Of a DNA stretch of 64,000 bases, positions 36,722 to 49,154 are shown piece after piece; positions within the stretch are counted from its first letter, which is position 1; each line of letters opens with the position of its first letter. This stretch comes from Phycisphaerae bacterium. GTDB lineage: Bacteria > Planctomycetota > Phycisphaerae > Phycisphaerales > SM1A02. Made by a program: the position numbers and the translations under genes. The notes under the pieces were generated by a model, which was given only the letters and a program-made list of their open reading frames with translations, ran no database searches and was not told the origin of the DNA. The DNA lies in assembly GCA_018701395.1 (NCBI GenBank), contig JABIWU010000051.1, positions 895 to 64,894 on the forward strand. Reading direction: 5' to 3'.

Positions 36722-37370
36722 AACAATTCTACTTTCAGTATGTATTTTTCTTTTACTAAGTTGCGGAAAACCCTCTGTTGATGATCGTCCAATACGTCCA
36801 ATCGAAGTCCTTAACTTCGACACACTTTTTGCACAACGCTGTTCGGGTTGCCACGGGAATGAAGGTGCTGGAAGTGCATCAATTGCACTGCACGATTCGG
36901 CGTTTATGCACATCGCAGGGAAGTCAACTATTCGAGACCTAATTGTGAACGGTCGTAAAAATACCTTAATGCCCTCTTTCCAAAGTAATACTGGTAATCC
37001 TTTATCAGATGCACAAATAGACGCGCTTGTCATTGGGATGTCCGAAAACTGGGGAGGAGAGATTCCACCTTGGGCTGAAGGAAGACGATATGAAATTCAA
37101 AAAGGCGATGCCGGAAGAGGCCGAGGAGCATTTGCCGATTTATGTGCAAGTTGCCACGGCCCTGATGGCACCGGTGCAGTTGCCGGCTCTGTAGTCAATG
37201 CCTCCTACTTACGACTAGTGAGTGAACAATATTTACGAAGCGTCATTCTTTTCGGAAGACCAGAACTTGGCATGCCAAATTTTGCCTGCAAAACAGATGA
37301 CAAAACAATAGACGACATCGTTGCATGGCTTTTAACGCATAAAGAAAATTGGAGTAATGCCAATGACTAG
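36714..37370 (+). CDS. Dihaem c-type cytochrome (lipoprotein-like signal)
   Basis: MIKTILLSVCIFLLLSCGK signal, two CxxCH motifs (CSGCH, CASCH) and distal Met motifs (LMPSF, GMPNF). The ATG at 36714 overlaps the upstream stop by 8 nt. Confidence 0.8.
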   Translation: MIKTILLSVCIFLLLSCGKPSVDDRPIRPIEVLNFDTLFAQRCSGCHGNEGAGSASIALHDSAFMHIAGKSTIRDLIVNGRKNTLMPSFQSNTGNPLSDAQIDALVIGMSENWGGEIPPWAEGRRYEIQKGDAGRGRGAFADLCASCHGPDGTGAVAGSVVNASYLRLVSEQYLRSVILFGRPELGMPNFACKTDDKTIDDIVAWLLTHKENWSNAND

Positions 37371-37848
37371 ACGCACCTTATTAAATAGACTTGCACTTGG
37401 AATAAATGCACTTGCGGCTCTACTTGTTGGAGTGCCTCTCGTTGGTTTTGTATTTGCTCCTGCAGTTGACAAAGCAAAGAATAAATGGATCTCCATTGGC
37501 AAACTTGAAGAATTCACTGCAGGACAAACCAAACTTGCAACGTATATAAATCCTTATCTAGTTCCGTGGGATAACGAAGTTGCGAAAGTTCCATGTTGGG
37601 TTCGACGAATTGACGAAACCACATTTCAAGTGTTCGCAATTAATTGCGCACATCTTGGTTGCCCAGTAAAGTGGTTTGCAGAATCACAACTTTTCATGTG
37701 TCCTTGCCATGGTGGTGTGTATTACGCAGATGGTTCAAGAGCATCTGGGCCTCCACCTCGAGGGCTTTTTGAATACCAATATCGTTTAGAAAACGGACAT
37801 CTAGAAGTTCGTGGTGGCCGCCTTCCAACAATTCAGGAGAGCGTCTAA
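37357..37848 (+). CDS. Rieske [2Fe-2S] subunit of a cytochrome bc/b6c-type complex
   Basis: Tat-like N-terminus MPMTRRTLLNRLALG and the cluster boxes CAHLGCPV and CPCHGGVY. Confidence 0.9.
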   Translation: MPMTRRTLLNRLALGINALAALLVGVPLVGFVFAPAVDKAKNKWISIGKLEEFTAGQTKLATYINPYLVPWDNEVAKVPCWVRRIDETTFQVFAINCAHLGCPVKWFAESQLFMCPCHGGVYYADGSRASGPPPRGLFEYQYRLENGHLEVRGGRLPTIQESV

Positions 37849-38949
37849 GTGTCAAACCCATTCAAAACAATTGCCACGTGGGTCAACGAGCGAATGCAAT
37901 TGCAATCGTCGATCGGTCCAATCATGTCGCATCGAGTTCCGCTTCGCGCTCGATGGTTTTACGTTTTTGGATCCGCAACACTCACTTGCTTCTTGATGCA
38001 AATTCTAACCGGCATTCTGCTTTCAACCGTTTATGTTCCCAGCGCAGGGGAAGCGTACCAATCTCTTGAATACTTAAATTATGTACAACCCTTAGGCTGG
38101 TACCTTCGAGCGCTGCATGCGTTCTTTGGAAATGCCATGGTGTTTATGCTTCTTTGCCATCTTGTACAAGTCGTTATTTTCGCATCGTATAAATACCCAA
38201 GGGAATTAACGTGGGTATTTGGCGTAGTTTTGTTTTTGTGTGTACTTGCAATGGCATTCTCTGGGCAAATTCTTCGTTGGGACCAAGATGCTTACTGGGG
38301 ACTAGGAATCGGCGCTTCTATGGCTGGAAGGATTCCGATTCTTGGGCCATACGTGGTGCACTTAATGTTAGGCGGTCCGATTATTGGCGGCGAAACTCTT
38401 TCGCGCTTCTTCGCACTCCACGTTTTCGTTTTGCCACTAACCATTGCAGGAGTTATTTTTATTCATGTAATGCTTGTTCTAAAAAATGGCATTTCTGATC
38501 CACCAAGATCAGGCGTTGTTGTTAATCCAAAAACCGAACGAGAGGATTACAAAAAGAGAATTTCTGGTGATGAAGGAACCACTTTTTTCCCAACGCCAAT
38601 TGCACGAGATGCTATTTTCAGTGGCGGACTTGTCATTGTAGTTGCCTTACTTGCCGCAATGCTCGGACCAACTGGACCAAACGGTATTCCAGACCCCACC
38701 ATTATTGACACTTCACCAAAACCAGACATTTGGTTCATGTTCCTCTTTTCTTCTCTTGCTCTCCTGCCCCCAGCAATTGAAACGTTTCTTATTCTTACCG
38801 CTCCTGCCGTGTTAATTCTCGCGCTGTTTTCAGTTCCATTCCTCAGCAACAGCGGTCAACGGCACATTAGTAAACGCCCAGTAACTGCACTTCTTCTTAT
38901 ATTTATTTTCACCGTGTATTTCGTATTAACTTGGCTTGGTTACCAATAA
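37849..38949 (+). CDS. Cytochrome b (fused b6 plus subunit IV-like)
   Basis: GTG start immediately after the Rieske stop. Bis-His helix pairs RALHAFFGNAMVFMLLCHL and FFALHVFVLPLTIAGVIFIHV. 366 aa, multi-TM. Confidence 0.9.
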   Translation: MSNPFKTIATWVNERMQLQSSIGPIMSHRVPLRARWFYVFGSATLTCFLMQILTGILLSTVYVPSAGEAYQSLEYLNYVQPLGWYLRALHAFFGNAMVFMLLCHLVQVVIFASYKYPRELTWVFGVVLFLCVLAMAFSGQILRWDQDAYWGLGIGASMAGRIPILGPYVVHLMLGGPIIGGETLSRFFALHVFVLPLTIAGVIFIHVMLVLKNGISDPPRSGVVVNPKTEREDYKKRISGDEGTTFFPTPIARDAIFSGGLVIVVALLAAMLGPTGPNGIPDPTIIDTSPKPDIWFMFLFSSLALLPPAIETFLILTAPAVLILALFSVPFLSNSGQRHISKRPVTALLLIFIFTVYFVLTWLGYQ

Positions 38950-38964
38950 CCTTGGTCACCAAAA

Positions 38965-39309
38965 ATGCAAGCATGGAGCAGTGACGAAACGCCCATCCAT
39001 TTCATAGAAGGAAGAACACCATTGGAATTAGCTGGTGCCGCTGCCTTTCAATATAAACAGTGCAGAAACTGTCATCAACTTGGTGGCATAGGCGGTGAAC
39101 GTGGACCTGAACTTGATTCGATTGCAACTCGAAAAACAACAAACGAACTTATCCGTCAGGCAATACAAGGCGGAGGAAATATGCCAACATATGGACATAA
39201 TCTTTCTCCGGAAGAGCTAATCTCAATCGTTGCCTTTTTATCCACCCTGCATCCTGAAAATGAAAGCCCAGCTCAAACTGCTGATGTTTCATTGAATCCA
39301 ACAAACTAA
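38965..39309 (+). CDS. Monohaem class I c-type cytochrome
   Basis: CRNCHQLGG haem-binding motif and GGGNMPTYG distal Met region. 114 aa. Confidence 0.8.
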   Translation: MQAWSSDETPIHFIEGRTPLELAGAAAFQYKQCRNCHQLGGIGGERGPELDSIATRKTTNELIRQAIQGGGNMPTYGHNLSPEELISIVAFLSTLHPENESPAQTADVSLNPTN

Positions 39310-39318
39310 ACTACGTCT

Positions 39319-41508
39319 ATGTCTGATTCATTCCAAGCAGCATTGCGTTTATGGACACTTGATTGGTGGACATTACTCGGGGCTGCACTAACATGTGCCT
39401 TGTACTATCGCGGCTGGAGTGGACTACACCGAAGACAACCGACAAAATACACCAAGGCAAGATTAGTCTCATTCATCGCAGGTATTGCGATTCTCGTAAT
39501 TGCAATTGTTTCACCTCTTGATACGCTTGCCGGTGTCTTGTTACAAGTACACATGGCACAACATGTGTTGCTAATGATGGTCATCCCACCACTGCTTTGG
39601 TTGAGTTGGCCAGCTCTTCCTCTTCTCTGTGGCTTGCCATTTACAATTCAAAAATATTGGATCGGTCCATTTTTAATTTCCAAGGGAATGCATTCGTTCG
39701 GTCGATTTCTTGTGCATCCTATTGTTGCATTGACATTATTTGTTTGCACCACTTGGATATGGCATTACCCTCGTGCTTACCAACTGGCACTTGTTAGTGA
39801 CACGTGGCATTCCATCGAGCATGCTTGTTTCCTATGCACAGCATTGTTATTTTGGTTTCCAATTATTGCGCCACAACCTTCAAAACCGGCTTGGCCACAG
39901 TGGGCAATGATTCCATACTTACTGGTAGCGGACATTCAAAACACTATTTTTTCAGCTTTCTTTAGTTTTGCAAGCGAGCCAATTTATTCTTTCTACCCAG
40001 ACCTTGGCTTGTTCGGAACTACGCTACTTCGAGATCAAGCCGCTGCAGGCGGACTTATGTGGGTTGCTAGTTCTGCTATTTTCTTAATACCTGTAGCAAT
40101 CATTTTGAAGAACATGCTTACGAATAAGGAAATGCTTGAGAAACCAACACCTTCAATTCAAAGTACACGTGTACCTCAAACCAAAGCATCTCGTTCGCGT
40201 TGGTTATATTCGATAAAAACAAGAAGAGCCGCACAACTTTTCATGTTTACACTAGCAGTTTTTACAATTGCAGATGGTCTGCTAGGACCAGAACTAGCGC
40301 CAATAAATTTGGCTGGAATATTACCCTGGATTTGGTGGAGAGGTCTTGTAATAATCGCCATACTTGTTGCTGGAAACTTTTTTTGTTATGCCTGTCCGTT
40401 TATGTTTGTTCGCGATCTAGCAAAACTGTTGCCTATTCCTAAAACTCGTTGGCCTCAAACCTTTCGCTCAAAGTGGCTAGCCGTTGCACTGTTTGTTGTT
40501 TGGCTTATGGTGTACGAAGTAATTTCTCCATGGTCATCACCTGCTTTTACAGCGTGGATCATTATCGGTTATTTTATTACTGCATTTTGCGTTGACGCTT
40601 TTTTTACTGGCGCAGCATTTTGCAAATGGGTTTGCCCTATTGGCCAATTTCATTTTGTTCTTTCTATATTTTCTCCATTTGAAATCAAAGCAATTTCAAA
40701 ATCAACTTGCGATACTTGTACAACTCAAGAATGTATTCGCGGGAATGGTTCGCCTATTGCTAGTAGAGGTTGCGAATTAGAACTTTTCGTTCCAACAAAA
40801 CAAGGAAACTTAGATTGCACGTTTTGCCTTGATTGTGTCCGAGCTTGCCCTCATGACAATGTTGCTCTTACTACTTCTTTCCCAGGCATCGACTTAGTCA
40901 ATGGAACATTCCGAGGCTCCATTGGTTCACTTCAACGTTCTGACTACACCGCACTCATGCTAGTTGTCGTCTTTGGAGCATTTGCAAATGCTGCCGGCAT
41001 GATTACGCCAGTTACTAACGCAATTAATAATACATCGCAATGGGTCGGCGCACCTTCAACGGCGCTCATAACTGCTATTTTCATTCTTTCTGCTTCTTTT
41101 ATTATTCCGAGTTTACTTTGCCTTTTGTGTAAGCGATTTGCTCGCACAACTTTTCAGGTCGCGTGGTCACTTGTTCCACTTGGCGTTGCAATGTGGGCAG
41201 CGCATTTGCTTTTTCATTTTTTCTCTTCGTACAAAACAATATTACCAGTTACAAAACGTGCCTTGTACGATATCGGGCTTACGAATATACCCGAAACAAT
41301 GTGGGAAATTACTTCGCCCCCAACTTGGCTTCTGCAAGGCGAACTCTTTTTGATAGTTATTGGTTTCCTTGCTTCTATTGCAATTTGTATTAGGCTTACG
41401 AACACGTTCCGCGAAAGAGCGCCGTGGTGTTTGCTTTCTATATTGTTATTTGTTTCAGGTGCTTGGATTCTTCTTCAGCCTATGCAAATGCGAGGAATGA
41501 TTGGATGA
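39319..41508 (+). CDS. Fusion protein: caa3-type oxidase assembly factor CtaG (COG3336-like) plus FixG/CcoG/NapH-like polyferredoxin membrane domain
   Basis: The N-terminal ~270 aa has VHMAQHVLLMMVIPPLLWLSWP, HPIVALTLF..WHYP and WHSIEHACFLCTALLFWFPII (Caa3_CtaG pattern). The C-terminal ~430 aa has CYACP (40384-40398), CKWVCP (40621-40638), CDTCTTQEC and CTFCLDCVRACP (40816-40851). Confidence 0.75.
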   Translation: MSDSFQAALRLWTLDWWTLLGAALTCALYYRGWSGLHRRQPTKYTKARLVSFIAGIAILVIAIVSPLDTLAGVLLQVHMAQHVLLMMVIPPLLWLSWPALPLLCGLPFTIQKYWIGPFLISKGMHSFGRFLVHPIVALTLFVCTTWIWHYPRAYQLALVSDTWHSIEHACFLCTALLFWFPIIAPQPSKPAWPQWAMIPYLLVADIQNTIFSAFFSFASEPIYSFYPDLGLFGTTLLRDQAAAGGLMWVASSAIFLIPVAIILKNMLTNKEMLEKPTPSIQSTRVPQTKASRSRWLYSIKTRRAAQLFMFTLAVFTIADGLLGPELAPINLAGILPWIWWRGLVIIAILVAGNFFCYACPFMFVRDLAKLLPIPKTRWPQTFRSKWLAVALFVVWLMVYEVISPWSSPAFTAWIIIGYFITAFCVDAFFTGAAFCKWVCPIGQFHFVLSIFSPFEIKAISKSTCDTCTTQECIRGNGSPIASRGCELELFVPTKQGNLDCTFCLDCVRACPHDNVALTTSFPGIDLVNGTFRGSIGSLQRSDYTALMLVVVFGAFANAAGMITPVTNAINNTSQWVGAPSTALITAIFILSASFIIPSLLCLLCKRFARTTFQVAWSLVPLGVAMWAAHLLFHFFSSYKTILPVTKRALYDIGLTNIPETMWEITSPPTWLLQGELFLIVIGFLASIAICIRLTNTFRERAPWCLLSILLFVSGAWILLQPMQMRGMIG

Positions 41509-41936
41509 TTCGATTCCTACTTTTTTGCATACTCTTTGTTTCGCCTTGCTTCGCAGACAATGGACATTTGATTAGTACTTTCAAAACAGATACGTACAAC
41601 GTCGCTATCTTTGCTGAACCATGGCCACTACGAGTTGGTGACATTCAATTTCGCGCAATCGTGACCGACCATGCTGGGAATTTACATATTGACCCCGATA
41701 TTGTGCCATTTGATGGGCAAATACTCACAATCAACATCGCTGAGCCAAGCACGTACACGCTTGAATATTTCCTTGCGGGACTACCTCAAAAGCCCATTCA
41801 ACTTGCAATAGCGCCGAAGGCGTCAATCTTTTCTTTGTATTGGGAAGTGTGGGCATCCTTGATTATTGGGCTAATATTCATCATTTTAAGAGAAATACTC
41901 GCCAAAAACCAAGCCCGTAGGTATCCTAATAGGTAA
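41505..41936 (+). CDS. FixH/YtkA-like small secreted/membrane-anchored protein
   Basis: Signal MIRFLLFCILFVSPCFA, an Ig-like pattern EPWPLRVGDIQFRAIVTDHAGNLHIDPDI and a C-terminal TM WASLIIGLIFIIL. The ATG overlaps the upstream stop (ATGA). The family call is tentative. Confidence 0.45.
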   Translation: MIRFLLFCILFVSPCFADNGHLISTFKTDTYNVAIFAEPWPLRVGDIQFRAIVTDHAGNLHIDPDIVPFDGQILTINIAEPSTYTLEYFLAGLPQKPIQLAIAPKASIFSLYWEVWASLIIGLIFIILREILAKNQARRYPNR

Positions 41937-41948
41937 GGAACACCATTT

Positions 41949-42221
41949 ATGGCAAAAGCAATAGCAGACCCAGAAGAAATCAGACGATTTGCACACGACT
42001 TAAAGCGTTTCAACGATGACTTAACGCATCAGTTGCAACTCATGCGCTCTCGCATGTCATCCCTGTCCCAAAGTTGGCGAGACCAAGAGCAACGAAAGTT
42101 TGAAGAAGAATTCGACTTTACCGTCAAGGCAATGGATCGCTTCGCAAAATCATCCGCCGAACAGATTCCGTTCCTTCTTCGTAAGGCCCAGCGCATCGAA
42201 GAATATTTACAACAACGGTAA
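41949..42221 (+). CDS. WXG100-like helical-hairpin protein (W-R-D variant)
   Basis: 90 aa with no signal peptide. Two predicted helices flank a central SQSWRDQEQRKFEEEF (W at 42075-42077), matching the W-x-G-x5-F layout of ESAT-6/WXG100 proteins with G replaced by D. AAGGA lies upstream of the ATG. Confidence 0.6.
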   Translation: MAKAIADPEEIRRFAHDLKRFNDDLTHQLQLMRSRMSSLSQSWRDQEQRKFEEEFDFTVKAMDRFAKSSAEQIPFLLRKAQRIEEYLQQR

Positions 42222-42224
42222 CAC

Positions 42225-42833
42225 ATGTCACAAGCCGCAAATGTCCGTTCTCTTGAATCGCTAGTTGAGTTTCGTACAGCGCTTGTTAAATATATCGATA
42301 AAGCGAAGCGTTCAATTTCAACAGCAGATTCTGAAGTTTCTCGAACACAAATATGGCTTCAATCTACACAGCCGCTACATTGGAAACATGAAATCAGAAG
42401 AAGCGAGGAAAAACTCGCCCAAGCAAAAAGTGAATTATTTCGTGCAACTATTTCTCAACCCGACAATCCAAGAGGTCCAACTGATCAAATTCGGCTTGTA
42501 AAAAAACGGCAAGATGAAATAAAATTTGCTGAAGAAAAACTTGAACGAACCAAACGATGTTCAAGACATCTTGAACATGAACTCAATGAATATCGAGGGG
42601 CTATGACTCCATTAAGCAGTTCGCTTGACGGTGACATGAACAAAGCCGTAAGCATTTTAGAACGCGCAATAAGTTCACTCGAAGCATACATCGCGACTAC
42701 TTCGACCTCTGCAGACGAACTACTCGGCGACGCACAACAAGTCAAATCCATCGCACGAAAAGGTAAAGACCAAACAAAGGAGGTCGACGATGAGCATGCC
42801 GACAGCGACAGCGCAACTGACAAAAGCAACTAA
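42225..42833 (+). CDS. Coiled-coil protein of unknown function with acidic C-terminal tail
   Basis: 202 aa, heptad-rich (EEKLAQAKSELFRA, EIKFAEEKLERTK), ending in KEVDDEHADSDSATDKSN. It starts 3 nt after the preceding stop. Confidence 0.6.
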   Translation: MSQAANVRSLESLVEFRTALVKYIDKAKRSISTADSEVSRTQIWLQSTQPLHWKHEIRRSEEKLAQAKSELFRATISQPDNPRGPTDQIRLVKKRQDEIKFAEEKLERTKRCSRHLEHELNEYRGAMTPLSSSLDGDMNKAVSILERAISSLEAYIATTSTSADELLGDAQQVKSIARKGKDQTKEVDDEHADSDSATDKSN

Positions 42834-43002
42834 AGCCATGCTGTATCAATGGCAAGTGGCTAACGAGCATTGGAATGACCCCGTGAGCAAACGGCTTGAA
42901 GAGAAACACATCGAGCCCCTTCTCCTAGCTGTTCGTAGTGCTATCGGAGCGATGGATTCAATGGGCGAAACTATCGCCAAAGCGCAGAATGAGTGTTCCT
43001 GA
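42790..43002 (+). CDS. Second small WXG100-like protein (W-N-D variant), paralogous to 41949-42221
   Basis: 70 aa. NEHWNDPVSKRLEEKH (W at 42871-42873) aligns with SQSWRDQEQRKFEEEF of the first protein. A perfect AAGGAGG (42777-42783) sits 6 nt before the ATG at 42790, even though this start overlaps the upstream gene by 44 nt. Confidence 0.6.
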   Translation: MSMPTATAQLTKATKAMLYQWQVANEHWNDPVSKRLEEKHIEPLLLAVRSAIGAMDSMGETIAKAQNECS

Positions 43003-43029
43003 GTGCTACAATGCTAATGCATAACTTCT

Positions 43030-46000
43030 ATGACTAAATCATCACTTCAACATCAAAAAAAGCAGATTGCCTTTGTTCGCTCATTAATTCGAGAAACAAC
43101 TTCTAGCGAGCTAGAACTACAAAATCGAATCAAAATTGAACGTGCCTCTGCTATTGAATTGCAAAAACAAAACCTTGAAGCATGTGTAGAGAAATTTAAG
43201 CAAAAGCGTGAAACTGCTGGGCAACGCAAAGAGGGAACGATAACCGAGGTTCAAGATCGACGCGAACTTGAACCTGAATTACTCAAGCAAAAAAACGATC
43301 AACGAATCGTTGAAATTAATTCACAAGCTGAAGATTTAACTGAAGATACAGAAACTAAATTAGGCGAAGCAATCTGGCTTGCAGAATCTGTTTTCGAAGG
43401 TGCTATTTCAGTTCCAAGAGAGCGCGCTCAAGAAGAACAAAATGCATTAGAAGATTGCAAAGAAGCTCTCCACTTACTCATTGAGGAAGCACCGAAGACG
43501 CTATCTAAATTACGTCAAAAGCAAGACACTCATCTAACCGAATGTACAAAAACCGCAGATGACACCATGGCAAATTATGTCAAAGGCGCAACTGAAGCCC
43601 TAGGCGCTATTCAAAATGATCCTAAAGCAAAATGGTGTTCTGGTTTTAGGCCAGTATTAGTTGTTGGAATTGCCGCAGCAGCTGGAGTTGGCGTCGGAGG
43701 AGCGTATACAAATTGGGCTCTTACGTTGCCATTTTTTGCATTCGCAATTGGAGCAATATTAATCTCAGTACTAGCAATTATTTTCACTTTTGCTTCTGGT
43801 CGTAATTCCGTCAAGAAAAAGTATGCGCAGTTCTCATCATGCATTCAATCAGCAAAACTCTCCTACGAGACTTCTCGTAATTCAATCGACGTAAAGCGAC
43901 GCGCAGAAGAAAAAGGGATCACTACTACTCGTGATATTGAAATCAAAAAAGCGGAAGACAAATACAAACCAAGACTAGACAACGTTGAAAGGCTTCTCAA
44001 AAAAGACATTGATAAAGAGAAAGTGAAATTCAAAAGTGTCGGAGCCAAACTAGCTACTAAAATTGAAACCGACTTAGCCGAAGCATCCTCAACCTTTGAA
44101 GCAAGTATTGTCAAATGCAACAGTGACGAACAAGCCGAGATTGATCAAATAAAAACCACTTTCACAGAGACGATGCAGTCCATTGATAATGAAGAACGTG
44201 ACACAATGGAAGCGTTGTCAAACCGTTGGAACTCCAACTTTGCATCGTTTCACGCAGACACAGACAGCCAAATACAGAGTGCGATTTCTAATCACCCCAC
44301 TTGGGATTCTAGTTGGGACGCTTGGGAACCCCCAGCGCAATCTATCATGGATGTTCCCGTCGGCGCATTCGAAGTAGACCTTGCCAACATTGCTGGCAAT
44401 TTACCATGCAGTGAATCCTTCCAATTACAAGAGGCGACTGTGATTTCGCTTCCGCTGAATGCTACGCTTCCAAATCACACATCCGTACTTGTATCTTCAA
44501 CAGGAAAGCGTCGAAGCGACTCAATTGCTTTTTTACAAAGCACAGTGTTGCGAATGCTCACTTCTATTCCACCTGGAAAAGTGAAATTCACATTGATTGA
44601 CCCCGTTGGTCTTGGCCAAAGTTTTGCGAGCGTGCTTCATCTATCGGATTACGAAGAGTCTCAGTTACTCGATCGCGCTTGGACTGAACCAAGACATATC
44701 GAAACGCAACTCGCACGACTTACTGAGCACATGGAAACTGTTATTCAAAAGTATCTACGAAATGAATTTGAATCGATTGATGCGTACAACGAACAAGCGG
44801 GAGAAATTGCAGAGCCCTATCGCTTTTTAGTAATCGCTGATTTACCGAACAACTTTTCTGAAACAGCGGCAAAGCGCTTAACCAGCATTATTACCAGCGG
44901 TGCTCGTTGTGGCGTGCATGTCATTATACATCGAGATATTTCACTACCTCTTCCTGCTGGTATAGACGAGGACACATTACGAAGAATTTCCGTACGCATT
45001 GTTGAAGATGATGCCAGATTCTGCATTGACGAAGAAGAACTTCGAGACTTGCCACTTACAATTGAATCTCCGCCAGCTGAAGATATTGCTTCAGCAATCG
45101 TTAAGCAAGTTGGCGAAACTGCTGACAGCACGCATCGAGTCGAGGTTCCGTTCAGTGTCATTTCTCCAGCAGCCGATAAAATTTGGTCGCGGTCAACAAA
45201 AGATAAGGTTGAAATTCCACTTGGAAAATCTGGCGCTACAAGACTTCAAAACTTAACGCTTGGCAGAGGAACTGCACAGCACGCACTTATTGCCGGAAAA
45301 ACTGGCTCAGGCAAATCAACACTCTTACATGTTTTAATTACGAACCTTGCGCTTTGGTATAGCCCAGACGAAATAGAATTTTATCTAGTCGACTTTAAAA
45401 AAGGCGTCGAATTCAAAACCTACGCAACACATAAATTGCCGCACGCACGAGTCGTCGCCGTCGAAAGCGACCGTGAATTCGGCATAAGTGTTTTACAAAG
45501 AATTGATGCTGAATTAAAACGTCGCGGTGAATTATTTCGAGAGTTAGGCGTGCAAGATATTGCTGGGTTTAGAGACAAATCCACAGAACGAATGCCACGA
45601 ATTCTTCTTATCATTGATGAGTTTCAAGAACTTTTCGTTGACGATGACAGAGTTGCACAAGAAGCGAGCTTATTACTTGACCGCTTAGTTCGGCAAGGCC
45701 GAGCGTTTGGAATCCACGCAATCATGGGTTCTCAAACTCTAGACGGTGCCTATACCTTGAGTCGTTCAACTATGGGGCAGATGGCTGTACGCGTTGCGTT
45801 GCAGTGTTCAGAACAAGACAGTTACATTATTCTAAATGAAGACAATGCAGCCGCTCGTCTTCTTTCAAGGCCCGGCGAAGCCATTTACAACGATGCCGCA
45901 GGTAATATTGAAGGCAATAGTCCATTCCAAGTTGTTTGGTTGAATGACAAAGAGCGTGAAATGTTCATCAAAGATTTAATCACGCGTGACAAAGGCAACG

Positions 46001-46827
46001 CGCGCGATATGGTTGTGTACGAAGGAAATCAACCAGTCCATCTTGCAGAAAACCCGGCGTACAAAGCAGCGAGCAATACTGAAAAACCACTCGCATCCAA
46101 AGCGTGGCTTGGTGGGGCGATGGCGATTAAAGAAGACACGTCAGCCACGTTCCGTACTGCCTCTGCAAGCAATTTGCTGATTGTCGGTCAACAAGATGAA
46201 ACAACAACTTGCATGTTATCGAGTGTATTGCAATCGCTTGATAAGCAGTTCCCAAAAGGGGATGCTACGTTCTACTTGCTTGATGGCACCCCGCAAGATC
46301 AACCACATGCTTCAATTCTTCCAGATACTGTTCATTCGATGTCGATTCCCCCAACGCTCGTTGGCGTGCGAGATATTGAAGGAGCAATGGCAACACTCTA
46401 CGCTGAGTTACAAAAAAGACTTTCAGATGGAGTAAGTGATTCACCAACTGTTTTCCTTTGCATCAATGCACTGCATCGCTTCAGAGACATGCGCCGCAAC
46501 GAAGATGATTACGGATTTTCAACGGGCGATGAAGAAAAGCAAAAAACACCTGCTCAGGTGCTTGCTGAATTACTCAAGGAAGGCCCGACGCTCGACATGC
46601 ATGTCATCGTTTCAACCGATACTCTCTCCAACCTGAACAGAGCGTTCGATAGACAGTCGTTGCGAGAGTTTGATATGCGCGTCCTCTTGCAGATGGGTGC
46701 GAACGATTCCACAAATCTTATCGATATGCCAGATGCTTCGAAACTTGGCATGCACCGTGCTCTTCTCTATAGTGAAGAAACTGGTACAATAGAACCCTTC
46801 AGGCCGTATGCTTATCCCGAAAGTTAA
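43030..46827 (+). CDS. Membrane-anchored FtsK/SpoIIIE-family ATPase with three P-loop domains (EssC/EccC-like)
   Basis: 1265 aa. It has a ~200-aa N-terminal coiled coil, a TM hairpin (about 43654-43800) and a second coiled-coil region. Three FtsK-like domains follow. D-a is degenerate (STGKRRSDS; RFLVIADLP). D-b is canonical, with Walker A GKTGSGKST (45295-45321) and Walker B LLIIDEFQEL (45601-45630). D-c is degenerate (LLIVGQQDETTT; VFLCINALHRF). Confidence 0.85.
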   Translation: MTKSSLQHQKKQIAFVRSLIRETTSSELELQNRIKIERASAIELQKQNLEACVEKFKQKRETAGQRKEGTITEVQDRRELEPELLKQKNDQRIVEINSQAEDLTEDTETKLGEAIWLAESVFEGAISVPRERAQEEQNALEDCKEALHLLIEEAPKTLSKLRQKQDTHLTECTKTADDTMANYVKGATEALGAIQNDPKAKWCSGFRPVLVVGIAAAAGVGVGGAYTNWALTLPFFAFAIGAILISVLAIIFTFASGRNSVKKKYAQFSSCIQSAKLSYETSRNSIDVKRRAEEKGITTTRDIEIKKAEDKYKPRLDNVERLLKKDIDKEKVKFKSVGAKLATKIETDLAEASSTFEASIVKCNSDEQAEIDQIKTTFTETMQSIDNEERDTMEALSNRWNSNFASFHADTDSQIQSAISNHPTWDSSWDAWEPPAQSIMDVPVGAFEVDLANIAGNLPCSESFQLQEATVISLPLNATLPNHTSVLVSSTGKRRSDSIAFLQSTVLRMLTSIPPGKVKFTLIDPVGLGQSFASVLHLSDYEESQLLDRAWTEPRHIETQLARLTEHMETVIQKYLRNEFESIDAYNEQAGEIAEPYRFLVIADLPNNFSETAAKRLTSIITSGARCGVHVIIHRDISLPLPAGIDEDTLRRISVRIVEDDARFCIDEEELRDLPLTIESPPAEDIASAIVKQVGETADSTHRVEVPFSVISPAADKIWSRSTKDKVEIPLGKSGATRLQNLTLGRGTAQHALIAGKTGSGKSTLLHVLITNLALWYSPDEIEFYLVDFKKGVEFKTYATHKLPHARVVAVESDREFGISVLQRIDAELKRRGELFRELGVQDIAGFRDKSTERMPRILLIIDEFQELFVDDDRVAQEASLLLDRLVRQGRAFGIHAIMGSQTLDGAYTLSRSTMGQMAVRVALQCSEQDSYIILNEDNAAARLLSRPGEAIYNDAAGNIEGNSPFQVVWLNDKEREMFIKDLITRDKGNARDMVVYEGNQPVHLAENPAYKAASNTEKPLASKAWLGGAMAIKEDTSATFRTASASNLLIVGQQDETTTCMLSSVLQSLDKQFPKGDATFYLLDGTPQDQPHASILPDTVHSMSIPPTLVGVRDIEGAMATLYAELQKRLSDGVSDSPTVFLCINALHRFRDMRRNEDDYGFSTGDEEKQKTPAQVLAELLKEGPTLDMHVIVSTDTLSNLNRAFDRQSLREFDMRVLLQMGANDSTNLIDMPDASKLGMHRALLYSEETGTIEPFRPYAYPES

Positions 46828-46957
46828 CATTAGTCGACCGACGAAAAAAGCAAAAAAATACACCTGAAAAACTAAGGGCCATTAGCTCAGTTGGCTAGAG
46901 CGCTTCGTTTACACCGAAGAAGTCACAGGTTCGAGTCCTGTATGGCCCATTAGTCGA
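46828..46957. repeat. 10-bp exact direct repeat CATTAGTCGA flanking tRNA-Val
   Basis: Copy 1 is at 46828-46837, directly after the ATPase stop codon. Copy 2 is at 46948-46957, starting with the last two nt of the tRNA. The tRNA 5' end also contains CCATTAG. Confidence 0.7.
46876..46949 (+). tRNA. tRNA-Val (anticodon UAC)
   Basis: Hand-folded cloverleaf, 74 nt: acceptor GGGCCAT/ATGGCCC, D stem GCTC/GAGC, anticodon stem CTTCG/CGAAG with loop TTTACAC, 5-nt variable loop, T stem ACAGG/CCTGT with loop TTCGAGT, discriminator A. CCA is not encoded. Confidence 0.9.
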
Positions 46958-47230
46958 GTTGCTAGAAGTAACCAACTTCCTGCAACTACTTGCAACAAAA
47001 GGAACTACATCTTTCGGGTTGTGTGACGTTTCCGCTCGTTTACCCCTATTTCCGCTACCTACTGCAACGCTCGCATAGTCATCTTCAGTCACTTGCAAGT
47101 AATGTTCGTTTGCAACCTTTGGCGAGTTTCCCATCCAGCATGCAACAACATGTACAGGCAATTCACGAGTAAGTTCAGTCTGTCGAGTTGAACGTAGGTT
47201 CTGCTTGAACAGTTGACGGCATTGTGTTTT
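46950..47230 (-). pseudogene. Tyrosine recombinase (phage-type integrase) C-terminal remnant
   Basis: The minus-strand translation LFKQNLRSTRQTELTRELPVHVVACWMGNSPKVANEHYLQVTEDDY (about 47063-47221) matches the C-terminal catalytic region (R...H...Y) of planctomycete-type integrases. The ~300 N-terminal residues are missing, and the frame runs on into the tRNA antisense. Confidence 0.7.
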
Positions 47231-47273
47231 TCTGTTCAATCTGATGCATAATGCACAGTGAAGGTGCATCGAA

Positions 47274-47522
47274 GTGGCAGATAAAAAATACGAACAACTG
47301 AAAAGTAAAACTATCCTAACAATTCTATGTTCACTACTTTTCTCCTGCGTTAATCTTGGTGAGAAGTATGTCACGATACGATTGCCTCATCCAGAAAAAA
47401 TAAAAGTAGTCAAGATTTCAGATGTAGAGTGGAGTGAATCAGAAAATGGATATCGCACAGACGGTTGGTGCATTATGAGTCTAGAGGACTATGAAAAGGT
47501 TGATGCATATATGAATAAATAA
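47274..47522 (+). CDS. Small hypothetical lipoprotein
   Basis: 82 aa from a GTG start, with lipobox-like LLFSC after a hydrophobic stretch. A hairpin plus T-run lies 10 nt after the stop. No homologue was recognised. Confidence 0.45.
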   Translation: MADKKYEQLKSKTILTILCSLLFSCVNLGEKYVTIRLPHPEKIKVVKISDVEWSESENGYRTDGWCIMSLEDYEKVDAYMNK

Positions 47523-47690: not shown

Positions 47691-49154
47691 ATGAAACACC
47701 TTATTTGCAATTTAGTACTCGTGGTTGGATTTACAGCCCAAATTGCTTCGGGGCAGTTCTTAGACTGCATAGCATCAGGGCCAACTTTTGTAGGGGATAG
47801 GGTTGAATTGGTCACGAGTGTAAGCAGTAATACTCAACTTATCGCTGGCTCAACAGGTACTGTCGTTTGCGGTGGGGTCGGCACAATGGTTATGGTTGAG
47901 TGGGATAATGTAAACAATGGCAGTGATGGAAGCGGTATTTGCCAATGTGGTGATCTTGACGGCATCCAAGGAAGTACACAGTGTTGGGGTGTGAGTATAT
48001 ATAACATCGTAATCGCCAACCAATTTAATCGATGGACTGTCAATGGCAGTGGCGGTATTGCCGATTTCGACACAATTCAAGAAGCAATTGATTTCGCCTC
48101 CGGTGGTGATGAGGTTGCTGTTTACCCCGGCACATACACTAGCACTAGAAATAATGTCGTTAATATCGAAAATCCAATTCGATTATTCAGTATTGGCGGA
48201 CCGAGCGAGACGATAATTAGTGGAGGCAATAGGAGGCGGGGCATTGCCTGTAGCGCTGAAGCCTCAATTGAGGGGTTTAACATTTCCAATTGCGAAGCTG
48301 CAGGTCTTGTGGGTGGTGGAATCCGGACCAATGAACCAATTACAGTAGTAAATTGTATTTTTGAATACAATCTCGCTGATTCGGGTGGTGGAATCTTCAG
48401 CAGTGGTGGAAATGTGTATGTAAGTGATTGTGTCTTCAGAAACAACTCCGCAGATATTGGTGCGGGAATGTTCTTATTAAACGGAACGCAAGAAATTATT
48501 AATTGTTCGTTTGAAACCAACATCGCGAATTTTGATGGCGGTGGTGCATTGGTCATGAGTGGGAATGCGTCCATTACTGATTGCGTATTCGTCAACAATT
48601 TATCGTATAGAAATGGTGGTGGGCTTGCGGTATATAGTTGTCTCCCTACAAGCACTTTTTTTGGTACAGAATTCATAAATAACGCCGCAAAAAATATTGG
48701 TGGAGGTTGCTATTTAAATAATTCCTCACCTACCATGTTGAATGGTGATTTCACTTCAAACGACGCTCAGAGCGTTGGTGGTGGCATTGGAATCGAAAAT
48801 TTTAGTTTCCCCAACATTAATCAACACGCCATCACCCAAAACACCGCAAGCGCAGGAGGAGGTATATATGTCGAAATGAACAGTATCGCTTCCCTTGAAA
48901 ATACGACTGTTTGCAATAACATTCCAGACCAAATACTTGGGGATTGGGTAGACATCGGCGGAAACTGGGTGGATGATGTTTGCCTACCAAACTGTCCTTG
49001 TGATTTCGATGGAAACAATGTTGTGGATATTTATGACATCCTTATCGTAGTGGGGCAATATGGTGGAACCGGTCCGCTCGGTGACTGCAATGGCGATGGC
49101 GTTGTTAATGTAGTTGACATCGTTCTTACCATTTCCGATCTGGGTCCCTGTTAA
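47691..49154 (+). CDS. Secreted right-handed beta-helix (PbH1-repeat) protein with C-terminal dockerin-like Ca-binding module
   Basis: AGGAG lies upstream and the signal is MKHLICNLVLVVGFTAQIASG. There are at least 8 tandem ~22-25-aa repeats with G-G-G-I/A cores (SGGGIFSSGGNV, DGGGALVMSGNA, NGGGLAVYS, IGGGCYLNN, VGGGIGIEN, AGGGIYVEM). The C-terminus has DFDGNNVVDIYD and DCNGDGVVNVVD (about 48993-49151). Confidence 0.8.
   Translation: MKHLICNLVLVVGFTAQIASGQFLDCIASGPTFVGDRVELVTSVSSNTQLIAGSTGTVVCGGVGTMVMVEWDNVNNGSDGSGICQCGDLDGIQGSTQCWGVSIYNIVIANQFNRWTVNGSGGIADFDTIQEAIDFASGGDEVAVYPGTYTSTRNNVVNIENPIRLFSIGGPSETIISGGNRRRGIACSAEASIEGFNISNCEAAGLVGGGIRTNEPITVVNCIFEYNLADSGGGIFSSGGNVYVSDCVFRNNSADIGAGMFLLNGTQEIINCSFETNIANFDGGGALVMSGNASITDCVFVNNLSYRNGGGLAVYSCLPTSTFFGTEFINNAAKNIGGGCYLNNSSPTMLNGDFTSNDAQSVGGGIGIENFSFPNINQHAITQNTASAGGGIYVEMNSIASLENTTVCNNIPDQILGDWVDIGGNWVDDVCLPNCPCDFDGNNVVDIYDILIVVGQYGGTGPLGDCNGDGVVNVVDIVLTISDLGPC

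Follow-up and report, generated by a model that had tools for sequence, protein, structure and literature searches.

Studies of type VII secretion have dealt almost exclusively with Actinomycetota and Bacillota. The secretion ATPase, EccC or EssC, consists of a DUF domain and three ATPase domains and works with several other membrane proteins, and the channel-forming parts of the machine are still debated. Here, a cassette of four genes (A, B, C and D) from a Phycisphaerae bacterium (GenBank assembly GCA_018701395.1, contig JABIWU010000051.1) was analysed. It lies in a stretch of 64,000 nucleotides (nt), referred to as the window, whose numbering is used for all coordinates. The cassette had been pointed out in a reading of the bare sequence (the original prediction) as a minimal type VII secretion-like module. 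It was found to combine a WXG100 protein (A), a long coiled-coil protein (B) and a probable further WXG100 relative (C) with an ATPase (D) of the EccC/EssC type, which carries a predicted membrane hairpin and one set of Walker motifs, and this gene order is kept across Planctomycetota.

A WXG100 protein together with an FtsK-family ATPase is taken as the minimal signature of a type VII secretion system (T7SS) (PMC4978471; PMC11217815), and HP0062 and HP0066 were called a minimal T7SS set in a Helicobacter pylori pan-genome paper (PMC4978471). The survey that defined the subtypes T7SSc-j covered Bacillota and Actinomycetota only (PMC11217815). Outside Gram-positive bacteria, WXG100/FtsK pairs have been noted bioinformatically only, according to a 2023 review citing Sutcliffe 2011 and Unnikrishnan 2017 (PMC10765036), as the original prediction had also stated. 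The nearest earlier remark is found in footnote 6 to Table 1 of Zhang, de Souza, Anantharaman, Iyer and Aravind (2012, Biol Direct 7:18; PMC3482391), where 'solo WXG' genes beside a triple-FtsK ATPase, with the middle domain alone active, were noted in planctomycetes and verrucomicrobia. The novelty is therefore smaller than previously assumed, since the architecture, and with it the WXG/ATPase association itself, was already noted computationally in 2012. New here are the conserved partners B and C, which are not mentioned in that footnote, the membrane anchor specific to the PVC (Planctomycetes-Verrucomicrobia-Chlamydiae) clade, the domain anatomy and the evidence for vertical inheritance across the phylum. 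The link between the position of B and the toxin carriers of mobile relatives is also new, as are B variants with an Imm33-like domain. A literature search found no paper joining WXG100 with named planctomycete genera and no functional work on HP0066.

Results

The ATPase

D was matched by the Pfam family FtsK_SpoIIIE (PF01580) over one domain at 1e-38 (133.5 bits). Its three best NCBIfam matches were EssC (122.1 bits), EccCa (TIGR03924, 122.1 bits, aligned to amino acids (aa) 464-958) and EccCb (105.5 bits), compared with 41.8 bits for FtsK (NF007615, cut-off 1566). Against PDB sequences, the active domain scored 74 bits with Bacillus subtilis YukB, 66 bits with D1 of EccC5 and 62, 51 and 12 bits with D1, D2 and D3 of Thermomonospora curvata EccC, respectively; FtsK (48–52 bits) and TcpA (46 bits) followed after EccC and YukB in this ranking. 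An AlphaFold2 model of aa 441-1265 (predicted local distance difference test score, pLDDT, 79.6) contained three alpha/beta domains. Its top match in Foldseek was EccC (4NH0, E 2.5e-28), aligned over about 900 (909) columns covering all three ATPase domains. Further matches were D2-D3 of EccC (4N1A, 8e-22), D2-D3 of EssC (4LYA, 1.3e-16) and TcpA (2.8e-9), and FtsK was matched over one domain only at 4e-11, an E-value 17 orders of magnitude worse than that for EccC. By sequence and predicted fold, D is closer to EccC/EssC than to FtsK or TcpA, as had been expected.

The Walker A motif (GKTGSGKS, aa 756-763, 45295-45318) and the Walker B motif (ILLIIDEF, aa 858-865, 45601-45624) each occur once in D. 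Walker A was identical in 20 of 22 homologues and read GRTGSGKS in the remaining two. At the strand-helix junctions that correspond in structure, the P-loop position reads SSTGKRRS in domain 1 (aa 490-497), of which the family keeps S-x-S-G-K-x-R only, and VGQQDETTT in domain 3 (aa 1052-1060), which has no lysine; the rest of the family shows this pattern too. Exactly one Walker A motif and a membrane hairpin were present in every one of 24 close homologues (P0001-P0024). Judged by these motifs, the middle domain is the sole catalytically competent ATPase domain of D. The description of D as an EssC/EccC-like triple-P-loop ATPase thus stands for the membrane anchor, the three FtsK-like folds and the EssC/EccC affinity. 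Because the Walker motifs occur in the middle fold only, 'triple-P-loop' was wrong and should read three FtsK-like folds, one active. In the model, the first domain may be equivalent to the DUF domain or to D1 of EccC. The third domain was aligned by Foldseek with the C-terminal ATPase domains of EccC/EssC and is a candidate substrate receptor, by analogy with D3 of EccC, which binds the EsxB signal (PDB 4N1A description).

Hydropathy analysis of D gave two transmembrane helices only, forming a hairpin; hydropathy and Pfam revealed neither a multi-pass anchor at the N-terminus nor the alpha and gamma domains of FtsK (PF17854, PF09397), and Pfam gave no FHA domain either. Basic residues flank the hairpin on either side, so that by the positive-inside rule both the first 200 residues and the whole part following the hairpin are predicted to be cytoplasmic. 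The N-terminal region of about 200 aa was present in all planctomycete homologues and absent from plasmid relatives, and about 380 residues of additional coiled coil around the hairpin were unique to the PVC clade. In this comparison of sequences, the predicted membrane anchor with its flanking coiled coils is specific to that clade.

The WXG100-like proteins

Of the two WXG100-like proteins originally predicted, A exceeded the Pfam threshold (PF06013, 32.6 bits; gathering score 27.3), whereas C was supported only at the level of profiles and with moderate confidence. All 38 homologues of A from related loci were matched by the same Pfam family (best 2.4e-12). A stayed below the cut-off of the NCBIfam model TIGR03930, 'WXG100 family type VII secretion target' (30.0 versus 44.85 bits). 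A profile of A matched H. pylori HP0062 (3FX7, 2GTS) over its full length in the PDB (E 4e-13), the next match being Bacillus anthracis EsxB (E about 1e-10), with crystal structures of EsxB/EsxA proteins also among the matches. The crystal structure of HP0062 is a helical hairpin that forms an antiparallel four-helix-bundle dimer, and the protein was earlier likened to ESAT-6 because it has a WRD turn and is linked to an FtsK/SpoIIIE gene (PMC3397514). The same WRD turn is found in A. Going by these matches, A is a bona fide WXG100 protein with HP0062 as its closest solved relative, and by homology it would be of the signal-less hairpin type of about 100 aa that forms a four-helix-bundle dimer.

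A central W-x-[G/D] turn had been proposed for both small proteins. It was found as W43-R-D45 in A, with W and D invariant in the family alignment, and as W28-N-D30 in C, so that the D form of the motif stood and the canonical W-x-G was seen in neither. The C-terminus of A (LLRKAxRIEEYLxQR) was invariant or nearly so across the family; in the window it ends in ...EEYLQQR, and a YxxxD/E signal is absent. The mean column identity of the A alignment was 61%, across classes of Planctomycetota and Verrucomicrobiota.

C alone had no match in Pfam or NCBIfam and was below the WXG100 gathering score. Within its family (49 sequences), W28-x-D30 was invariant. The C and A families were aligned by hhalign with E 2.5e-4 (probability 43%), their W-x-D motifs in register, and the C profile matched A of the window at 1.2e-5 among 473 open reading frames (ORFs). 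The same profile gave 27.6 bits with a Caballeronia and 14.6 bits with a Helicobacter plasmid WXG100 protein, and seven of the 49 members had weak Pfam WXG100 matches (best 4.3e-4). With moderate confidence, C can be regarded as a shortened, divergent WXG100 relative. The penultimate residue of C, Cys69 (42994-42996), was near-invariant, being present in at least 90% of the 49 homologues (consensus ...ARRxC), and might form a disulfide if C reaches the periplasm.

The coiled-coil protein

B belonged to no Pfam, NCBIfam or PADLOC family, and Pfam scans of 52 members gave nothing consistent. In the family alignment, a core of about 165 aa was conserved, W53 and Y155 being invariant, and was followed by a variable, acidic, proline-rich and disordered tail (aa ~168-202). 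An AlphaFold2 model (pLDDT 81.9) consisted of three long helices (3-77, 86-135 and 137-169). Foldseek against the PDB returned generic coiled coils only, the best being EmrA (E 0.013) and others being chemoreceptors, SMC arms and YscO (template-modelling score 0.6 on the target); a FliJ/YscO-like 'stalk' role for B would be pure speculation. A relationship of B to WXG100 or LXG proteins was considered and rejected (hhalign versus A, E 0.069, probability 0.8%).

A profile search of 1.84 billion representatives gave a B family of 2604 clusters at 50% identity, of which the best 150 representatives were inspected for toxin-fused forms. These were short (about 170–260 aa) or long (about 330–370 aa), apart from one protein of 411 aa and one repetitive artefact of 4853 aa. 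The long form made up about a quarter (approximately 37 of the 150). In nine long B proteins from the related loci, the extra C-terminal part was an Imm33-like domain (PF24719), which reached the gathering score in eight of the nine. These proteins have 345–377 aa and a GDSGW motif (L005 4545-5609, L008 4254-5387, L081 4716-5753 and six more). Among the immunity partners of HNH-type toxins, Zhang et al. 2012 (PMC3482391) name Imm33.

Conservation of the cassette

Relatives were obtained from a scan of one genome per GTDB species, which gave at least 584 related stretches, and the best 80 were examined. Nearly all of these came from Planctomycetota (orders Phycisphaerales, Tepidisphaerales, Sedimentisphaerales, Pirellulales, Planctomycetales, Gemmatales and Isosphaerales), together with three from Verrucomicrobiota and one from an unclassified genome, which bears out the assumed PVC-type origin of the DNA. 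Synteny was counted in loci with at least 2.5 kb upstream of D (n = 59). The order A-B-C-D was present in 53 of them, 51 by family profiles and two more on inspection, from Planctomycetota and some Verrucomicrobiota. The median spacings (A-B 18, B-C -4 and C-D 27 nt) were as expected for an operon, so that the genes are taken to be translationally coupled. When flanking ORFs were clustered all-against-all, no other gene occurred in more than 6 of 82 loci; the module therefore comprises exactly the four genes A to D.

A neighbour-joining tree of the last 800 residues of D grouped by order and phylum, with Verrucomicrobia, Tepidisphaerales, Gemmatales, Isosphaerales, Pirellulales and Sedimentisphaerales separate. 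Loci labelled 'uncultured Isosphaeraceae' (L001-L003) formed a separate deep clade with the window, apart from the Singulisphaera-type Isosphaerales (L020, L029, L070). Of these, L020 is the cassette of Singulisphaera sp. Ch08. The closest relatives of the window, L001 and L002, share its upstream respiratory genes. As the tree follows taxonomy, the respiratory flank is shared and the cassette has no anomaly in guanine-plus-cytosine (GC) content, inheritance within the PVC clade looks mainly vertical. The cassette is apparently single copy across the phylum. Homologues of B at 55–66% identity were labelled as Planctomycetes or Phycisphaerales metagenome-assembled genomes, several of them from Tara Oceans samples. 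The window probably belongs to an undescribed marine lineage of the PVC clade.

The original prediction had staked itself on hairpin or WXG100 similarity of the small proteins, on synteny of ATPase orthologues with them and on an ATPase that groups with EssC/EccC rather than with FtsK or conjugative translocases. All three were borne out, by the full-length profile match of A to HP0062 with C related at profile level, by the synteny count and by the NCBIfam, PDB and Foldseek comparisons.

Plasmid relatives and paralogues

A few distant full-length relatives of D were found by tblastn against plasmids. On a plasmid of Helicobacter sp. NHP19-012 (L085 4134-8536), the cassette reads, in order, an 89-aa HP0062-like protein, a 340-aa protein with a C-terminal WHH/HNH nuclease, a SUKH (SMI1/KNR4) immunity protein, a 77-aa protein and an 823-aa ATPase. 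The A profile matched the 89-aa protein at 5e-18. The nuclease and immunity layout corresponds to the export-cargo loci of the polymorphic-toxin framework (PMC3482391). On the Caballeronia plasmid pSBC2-5 (L084 3659-8596), a WXG100 protein is followed by proteins of 436, 113 and 76 aa and a 927-aa ATPase, and the cassette is surrounded by genes for VWA (TerY-like), PP2C, Ser/Thr kinase, CARF (DUF1887) and AAA proteins.

In the plasmid versions, the position of B is taken by a polymorphic toxin or a large helical protein. Homology of B to N-terminal carriers of these toxins was considered and not retained: it was weak in the case of the 436-aa protein from Caballeronia (hhalign E 1.5e-4, probability 51%; 13.5 bits), with the similarity to the B core falling in its N-terminal half, and no similarity to the Helicobacter WHH toxin was seen (hhalign E 0.085), so that only positional equivalence was kept.

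A paralogue branch of D (P0023, L083 7001-11980; also P0022) carries an N-terminal Ser/Thr kinase domain, the protein having about 1660 aa. Its flanks encode an FHA protein and an FHA-kinase protein, a muramidase gene lies nearby, and A, B and C are lacking, which suggests a phosphorylation-regulated variant. On a conjugative Rhodococcus plasmid (L087 3706-7674), TerD-family and DUF475 genes stand beside a gene for a 1322-aa protein related to D, the match covering the last two domains at E 7e-84; this would be another link of D-type ATPases to Ter-type stress or conflict loci.

Genomic context

The four genes were confirmed as co-directional, tightly packed ORFs on the + strand at 41949-46827, with A 0.8 kb upstream of D in the same operon (Table 1). 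In the window, A and B are separated by 3 nt, B and C overlap by 44 nt, and C and D are separated by 27 nt. An AGGAGG ribosome-binding site (42778-42783) lies 6 nt ahead of the ATG of C. A promoter and terminator scan gave counts no better than shuffled sequences. The GC content of the cassette (about 43–44%) does not deviate from the rest of the window.

Table 1. Genes of the cassette and regions of the ATPase D, in window coordinates.
Feature	Position	Strand	Description
Gene A	41949-42221	+	90 aa; WXG100-family helical hairpin protein
Gene B	42225-42833	+	202 aa; signal-less long coiled-coil protein
Gene C	42790-43002	+	70 aa; divergent WXG100-like protein (moderate confidence)
Gene D	43030-46827	+	1265 aa; membrane-anchored FtsK/SpoIIIE-family ATPase, EccC/EssC type
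D aa 1-200	43030-43629	+	N-terminal cytoplasmic (predicted) coiled-coil region; charged heptad-like stretches, no domain family; assigned by reading the sequence
D aa 205-255	43642-43794	+	two-helix transmembrane hairpin, loop of 3-4 residues; hydropathy scan and translation
D aa 441-680	44350-45069	+	first FtsK-like alpha/beta domain, degenerate; AlphaFold2 model
D aa 720-970	45187-45939	+	middle domain, the sole one with Walker motifs
D aa 1020-1265	46087-46824	+	third FtsK-like domain, degenerate; AlphaFold2 model and Foldseek

Upstream of A lies a respiratory cluster (37357-41936) encoding a Rieske protein, cytochrome b, cytochrome c and a 729-aa protein with an N-terminal CtaG domain; it is conserved directly upstream of A in L001 and L002. 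The N-terminal third of the 729-aa protein is Caa3_CtaG and the remainder is polytopic with Cys-rich CxxC motifs. It is followed by a 170-aa membrane protein with no family match. Downstream of D are a tRNA-Val (46876-46949), a 487-aa repeat protein, a GDSL lipase and BipA. The tRNA-Val has the anticodon TAC and starts 49 nt downstream of D. An antisense ORF overlapping it (46895-47374) resembled by eye the C-terminus of a tyrosine recombinase and was considered as an integrase remnant, which was rejected as Pfam gave nothing even at E <= 1; no boundary of an island was recognised here. The 487-aa protein (47691-49154) has a signal-peptide-like start and Gly/Asn-rich repeats and belongs to no family at threshold, with weak matches to Chlam_PMP (E 0.13) and, at the C-terminus, to dockerin (E 0.003).

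Comparison with described systems

The cassette agrees with the 'solo WXG + YueA-like ATPase' modules of Zhang et al. 2012, which include H. pylori HP0062/HP0066, in its ATPase, its WXG gene and its lineage. The plasmid versions share the order of WXG100 protein, larger helical protein, (immunity protein), protein of about 76 aa and ATPase. Unlike these, D of the PVC clade has an extra N-terminus of about 440 aa with a coiled-coil-flanked membrane hairpin, whereas the plasmid versions examined have no transmembrane segment, and the PVC cassette has no toxin or immunity gene, B ending in an acidic tail or an Imm33-like domain. The modules were described as 'mobile', whereas the PVC clade looks vertically inherited and plasmid-borne versions occur in other phyla.

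With T7SSb (EssC/YukB, EsxA, LXG toxins and Lap proteins), the cassette shares a membrane-anchored FtsK-family ATPase linked to WXG100, EssC/YukB being among the best matches of D, and signal-less all-helical proteins whose genes directly precede that of the ATPase. LXG toxins reportedly form pre-secretion complexes with their small helical Lap partners, and a larger helical protein with small helical partners may be analogous to these. However, the cassette has no FHA domains and no EsaA, EssA, EssB or EsaB/YukD at the locus, D has one Walker A motif rather than three and three folds rather than four, B has no detectable LXG homology, and the host is a diderm. P0029, an FHA-bearing relative of D, has three Walker A motifs, in contrast to D.

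The best structural match of D is the cytoplasmic region of T. curvata EccC, so that the cassette also resembles T7SSa/ESX, with the active domain nearest to D1 of EccC and a shared two-helix transmembrane anchor; by analogy with 4N1A, the last ATPase-like domain may recognise WXG100 partners. In contrast to ESX loci, no EccB, EccD, EccE or MycP is encoded at the locus, B separates A and C instead of a bicistronic EsxBA pair, A has no YxxxD/E signal, and D misses the EccCa and EccCb cut-offs. With T7SSc-j (Garrett, Higginson & Palmer 2024, PMC11217815), the cassette has in common the idea of a core pair, TsxC ATPase and TsxA WXG100 protein, around which the accessory genes vary. These subtypes are often accompanied by kinases, phosphatases and FHA proteins (PMC11217815), which is echoed by the kinase-fused paralogue of D with its FHA neighbours. 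These subtypes keep a canonical ATPase and usually a ubiquitin-like TsxB (PMC11217815), neither of which applies to the cassette.

Discussion

We propose that the cassette is a minimal type VII-like exporter with the periplasm as its destination, a reading that is the best supported of those considered and that we regard as evenly poised between right and wrong. It builds on what the analysis shows, namely that A and D are homologous to the core pair of the T7SS, how D is divided into domains and anchored in the membrane, that the genes form an operon with phylum-wide synteny, and that the flanking ORFs hold no other conserved partner. In favour of export are the WXG100 protein A, the EssC/EccC-like D, the hairpin kept in 24 of 24 close homologues, and the toxin and immunity genes at the position of B in Helicobacter.

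For ring assembly, formation of an A/B/C complex, recognition by domain 3, translocation and destination, we infer the following course. D would be held in the cytoplasmic membrane by its two-helix hairpin, with both ends in the cytoplasm, and presumably forms rings as FtsK-family ATPases do. Its single live, EccC D1-like ATPase domain would be the energy source, the degenerate domain 1 a scaffold and the degenerate domain 3 the substrate receptor. The signal-less hairpins of A and C could form an elongated all-helical complex with the long coiled coil of B, in the manner of EsxA dimers or of an LXG protein with its bundle of small helical partners. This complex may be recognised via a conserved C-terminal helix, e.g. 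...RIEEYLxQR of A, and would be pushed across the inner membrane into the periplasm.

Several observations weigh against this proposal. D counts a single active ATPase fold where EccC/EssC have three, and one fold less in total, and it is far under the equivalog cut-offs of TIGR03928 (EssC, 778.4), TIGR03924 (EccCa, 509.15) and TIGR03925 (EccCb, 346.55). In agreement with the original prediction, no EssA/EssB/EsaA or EccB/EccD/EccE/MycP-like genes were adjacent, and no EsaB, either among the neighbours of the cassette or among the flanking ORFs of the 82 clustered loci. As the hairpin loop has only 3–4 residues, the entire channel of a hexamer would have to be built from 12 helices, and in a diderm, export would reach the periplasm only. 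The hairpin is absent from the plasmid relatives in Caballeronia, Helicobacter and Deinococcus, and the ATPases of the first two have one Walker A motif, in the middle domain, and no transmembrane segment. Conservation is higher in A than in the motor (identity to the same Phycisphaerales locus about 54%, versus 43% for D), which would suit a structural or regulatory subunit no less than cargo. In the literature, no experimental work was found on any PVC member (cf. PMC10765036). In PADLOC, the ATPase domain of D was also matched by FtsK-like domains, that of SspH at 98.6 bits and that of mad8 at 95 bits.

If there is exported cargo, the higher conservation of A compared to the motor and the absence of a toxin argue for a structural or housekeeping role rather than an antagonistic one. 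In a bolder form of the export reading, which we hold to be doubtful, the PVC T7SS would be reduced to one membrane protein, a D hexamer being both motor and channel, built on its 12 hairpin helices alone and with a single live ATPase domain in each subunit. Its cargo would be a toxin-less A/B/C complex, exported into the large planctomycete periplasm, where Cys69 of C could form a disulfide and the complex would have an envelope-related role. The cassette would then be a domesticated descendant of a toxin exporter, with B in the place of the former toxin carrier, that is inherited vertically as a housekeeping device.

The strongest competitor is a non-secretory conflict or signalling system, which we consider possible, with the chances clearly against it. 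D would be tethered to the membrane and work from the cytoplasmic side as a sensor or motor of the FtsK/HerA type, with A, B and C as helical adaptors or regulators, e.g. of an effector encoded elsewhere; the planctomycete version might be a domesticated remnant of a toxin-immunity or defence cassette. The caveat of the original prediction, that the ATPase and its helical adaptors may not secrete at all, gains some weight in that the relatives outside PVC have no transmembrane segment and stand in toxin-immunity or TerY-P/CARF contexts: the Caballeronia version among TerY-like VWA, PP2C, kinase, CARF and AAA genes, the Helicobacter version with WHH and SUKH. The PADLOC matches of the ATPase domain to SspH and mad8 point the same way, as do the immunity-type, Imm33-like domain that ends about a quarter of B homologues and the FHA neighbours of the kinase-fused paralogue. 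On the other hand, A, B and C were without any match in PADLOC, and neither a nuclease or other effector nor an immunity gene was found in the PVC cassette, its neighbours or the flanking ORFs. Its vertical inheritance throughout a phylum, with housekeeping genes around it, sets the cassette apart from typical defence islands. In the PVC clade the membrane hairpin is strictly kept, and the multi-domain fold of D matches EccC far better than any defence ATPase in the PDB.

It is unlikely, in our view, that the cassette is a PVC-specific machine of the envelope or of cell biology, in which D would use ATP to assemble or remodel a scaffold of B, A and C at the cytoplasmic membrane, e.g. in budding, FtsZ-less division or membrane invagination, without export of the proteins. 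This would suit a module that is phylum-wide, apparently single copy and vertically inherited, the unusual conservation of A (see its column identity above), a B protein that forms a coiled coil about 75 residues long without an enzymatic domain, and the extra coiled coil of D around its hairpin, which is found in PVC only. Yet no known cytoskeletal or division family was matched in Pfam, NCBIfam or Foldseek, and no conserved linkage to division or envelope genes was seen. The cassette also occurs in Verrucomicrobiota, and FtsZ is generally reported for many of these.

That D is a DNA translocase, i.e. a chromosomal FtsK paralogue or a conjugative TraB/TcpA-type coupling protein with the small genes as unrelated passengers, is very improbable: D does belong to the FtsK/SpoIIIE superfamily and FtsK and TcpA structures are among its weaker matches, but its score is far below the FtsK equivalog cut-off, the FtsK alpha/gamma domains and multi-pass anchor are missing, the Foldseek match to FtsK covers a single domain at a much worse E-value than EccC, no relaxase, Rep or type IV secretion system genes were found among the neighbours and flanking ORFs, and the strict A-B-C-D synteny shows that the small genes are not passengers.

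If the export reading holds, the cassette is a natural minimal system, in which a single membrane protein with one live ATPase domain is joined by three small helical partners and which has been kept across a diderm phylum. The module links the characterised Gram-positive systems with the toxin-associated WXG/FtsK modules without transmembrane segments on plasmids of Proteobacteria and Helicobacter. It makes testable whether an EccC/EssC-type ATPase alone translocates folded helical bundles, what its degenerate C-terminal domain recognises, and what use such a machine has in outer-membrane bacteria without obvious toxin cargo. A T7SS with a single membrane protein, if true, would define the minimal type VII translocon and would be the first that is native to diderms of the lipopolysaccharide type.

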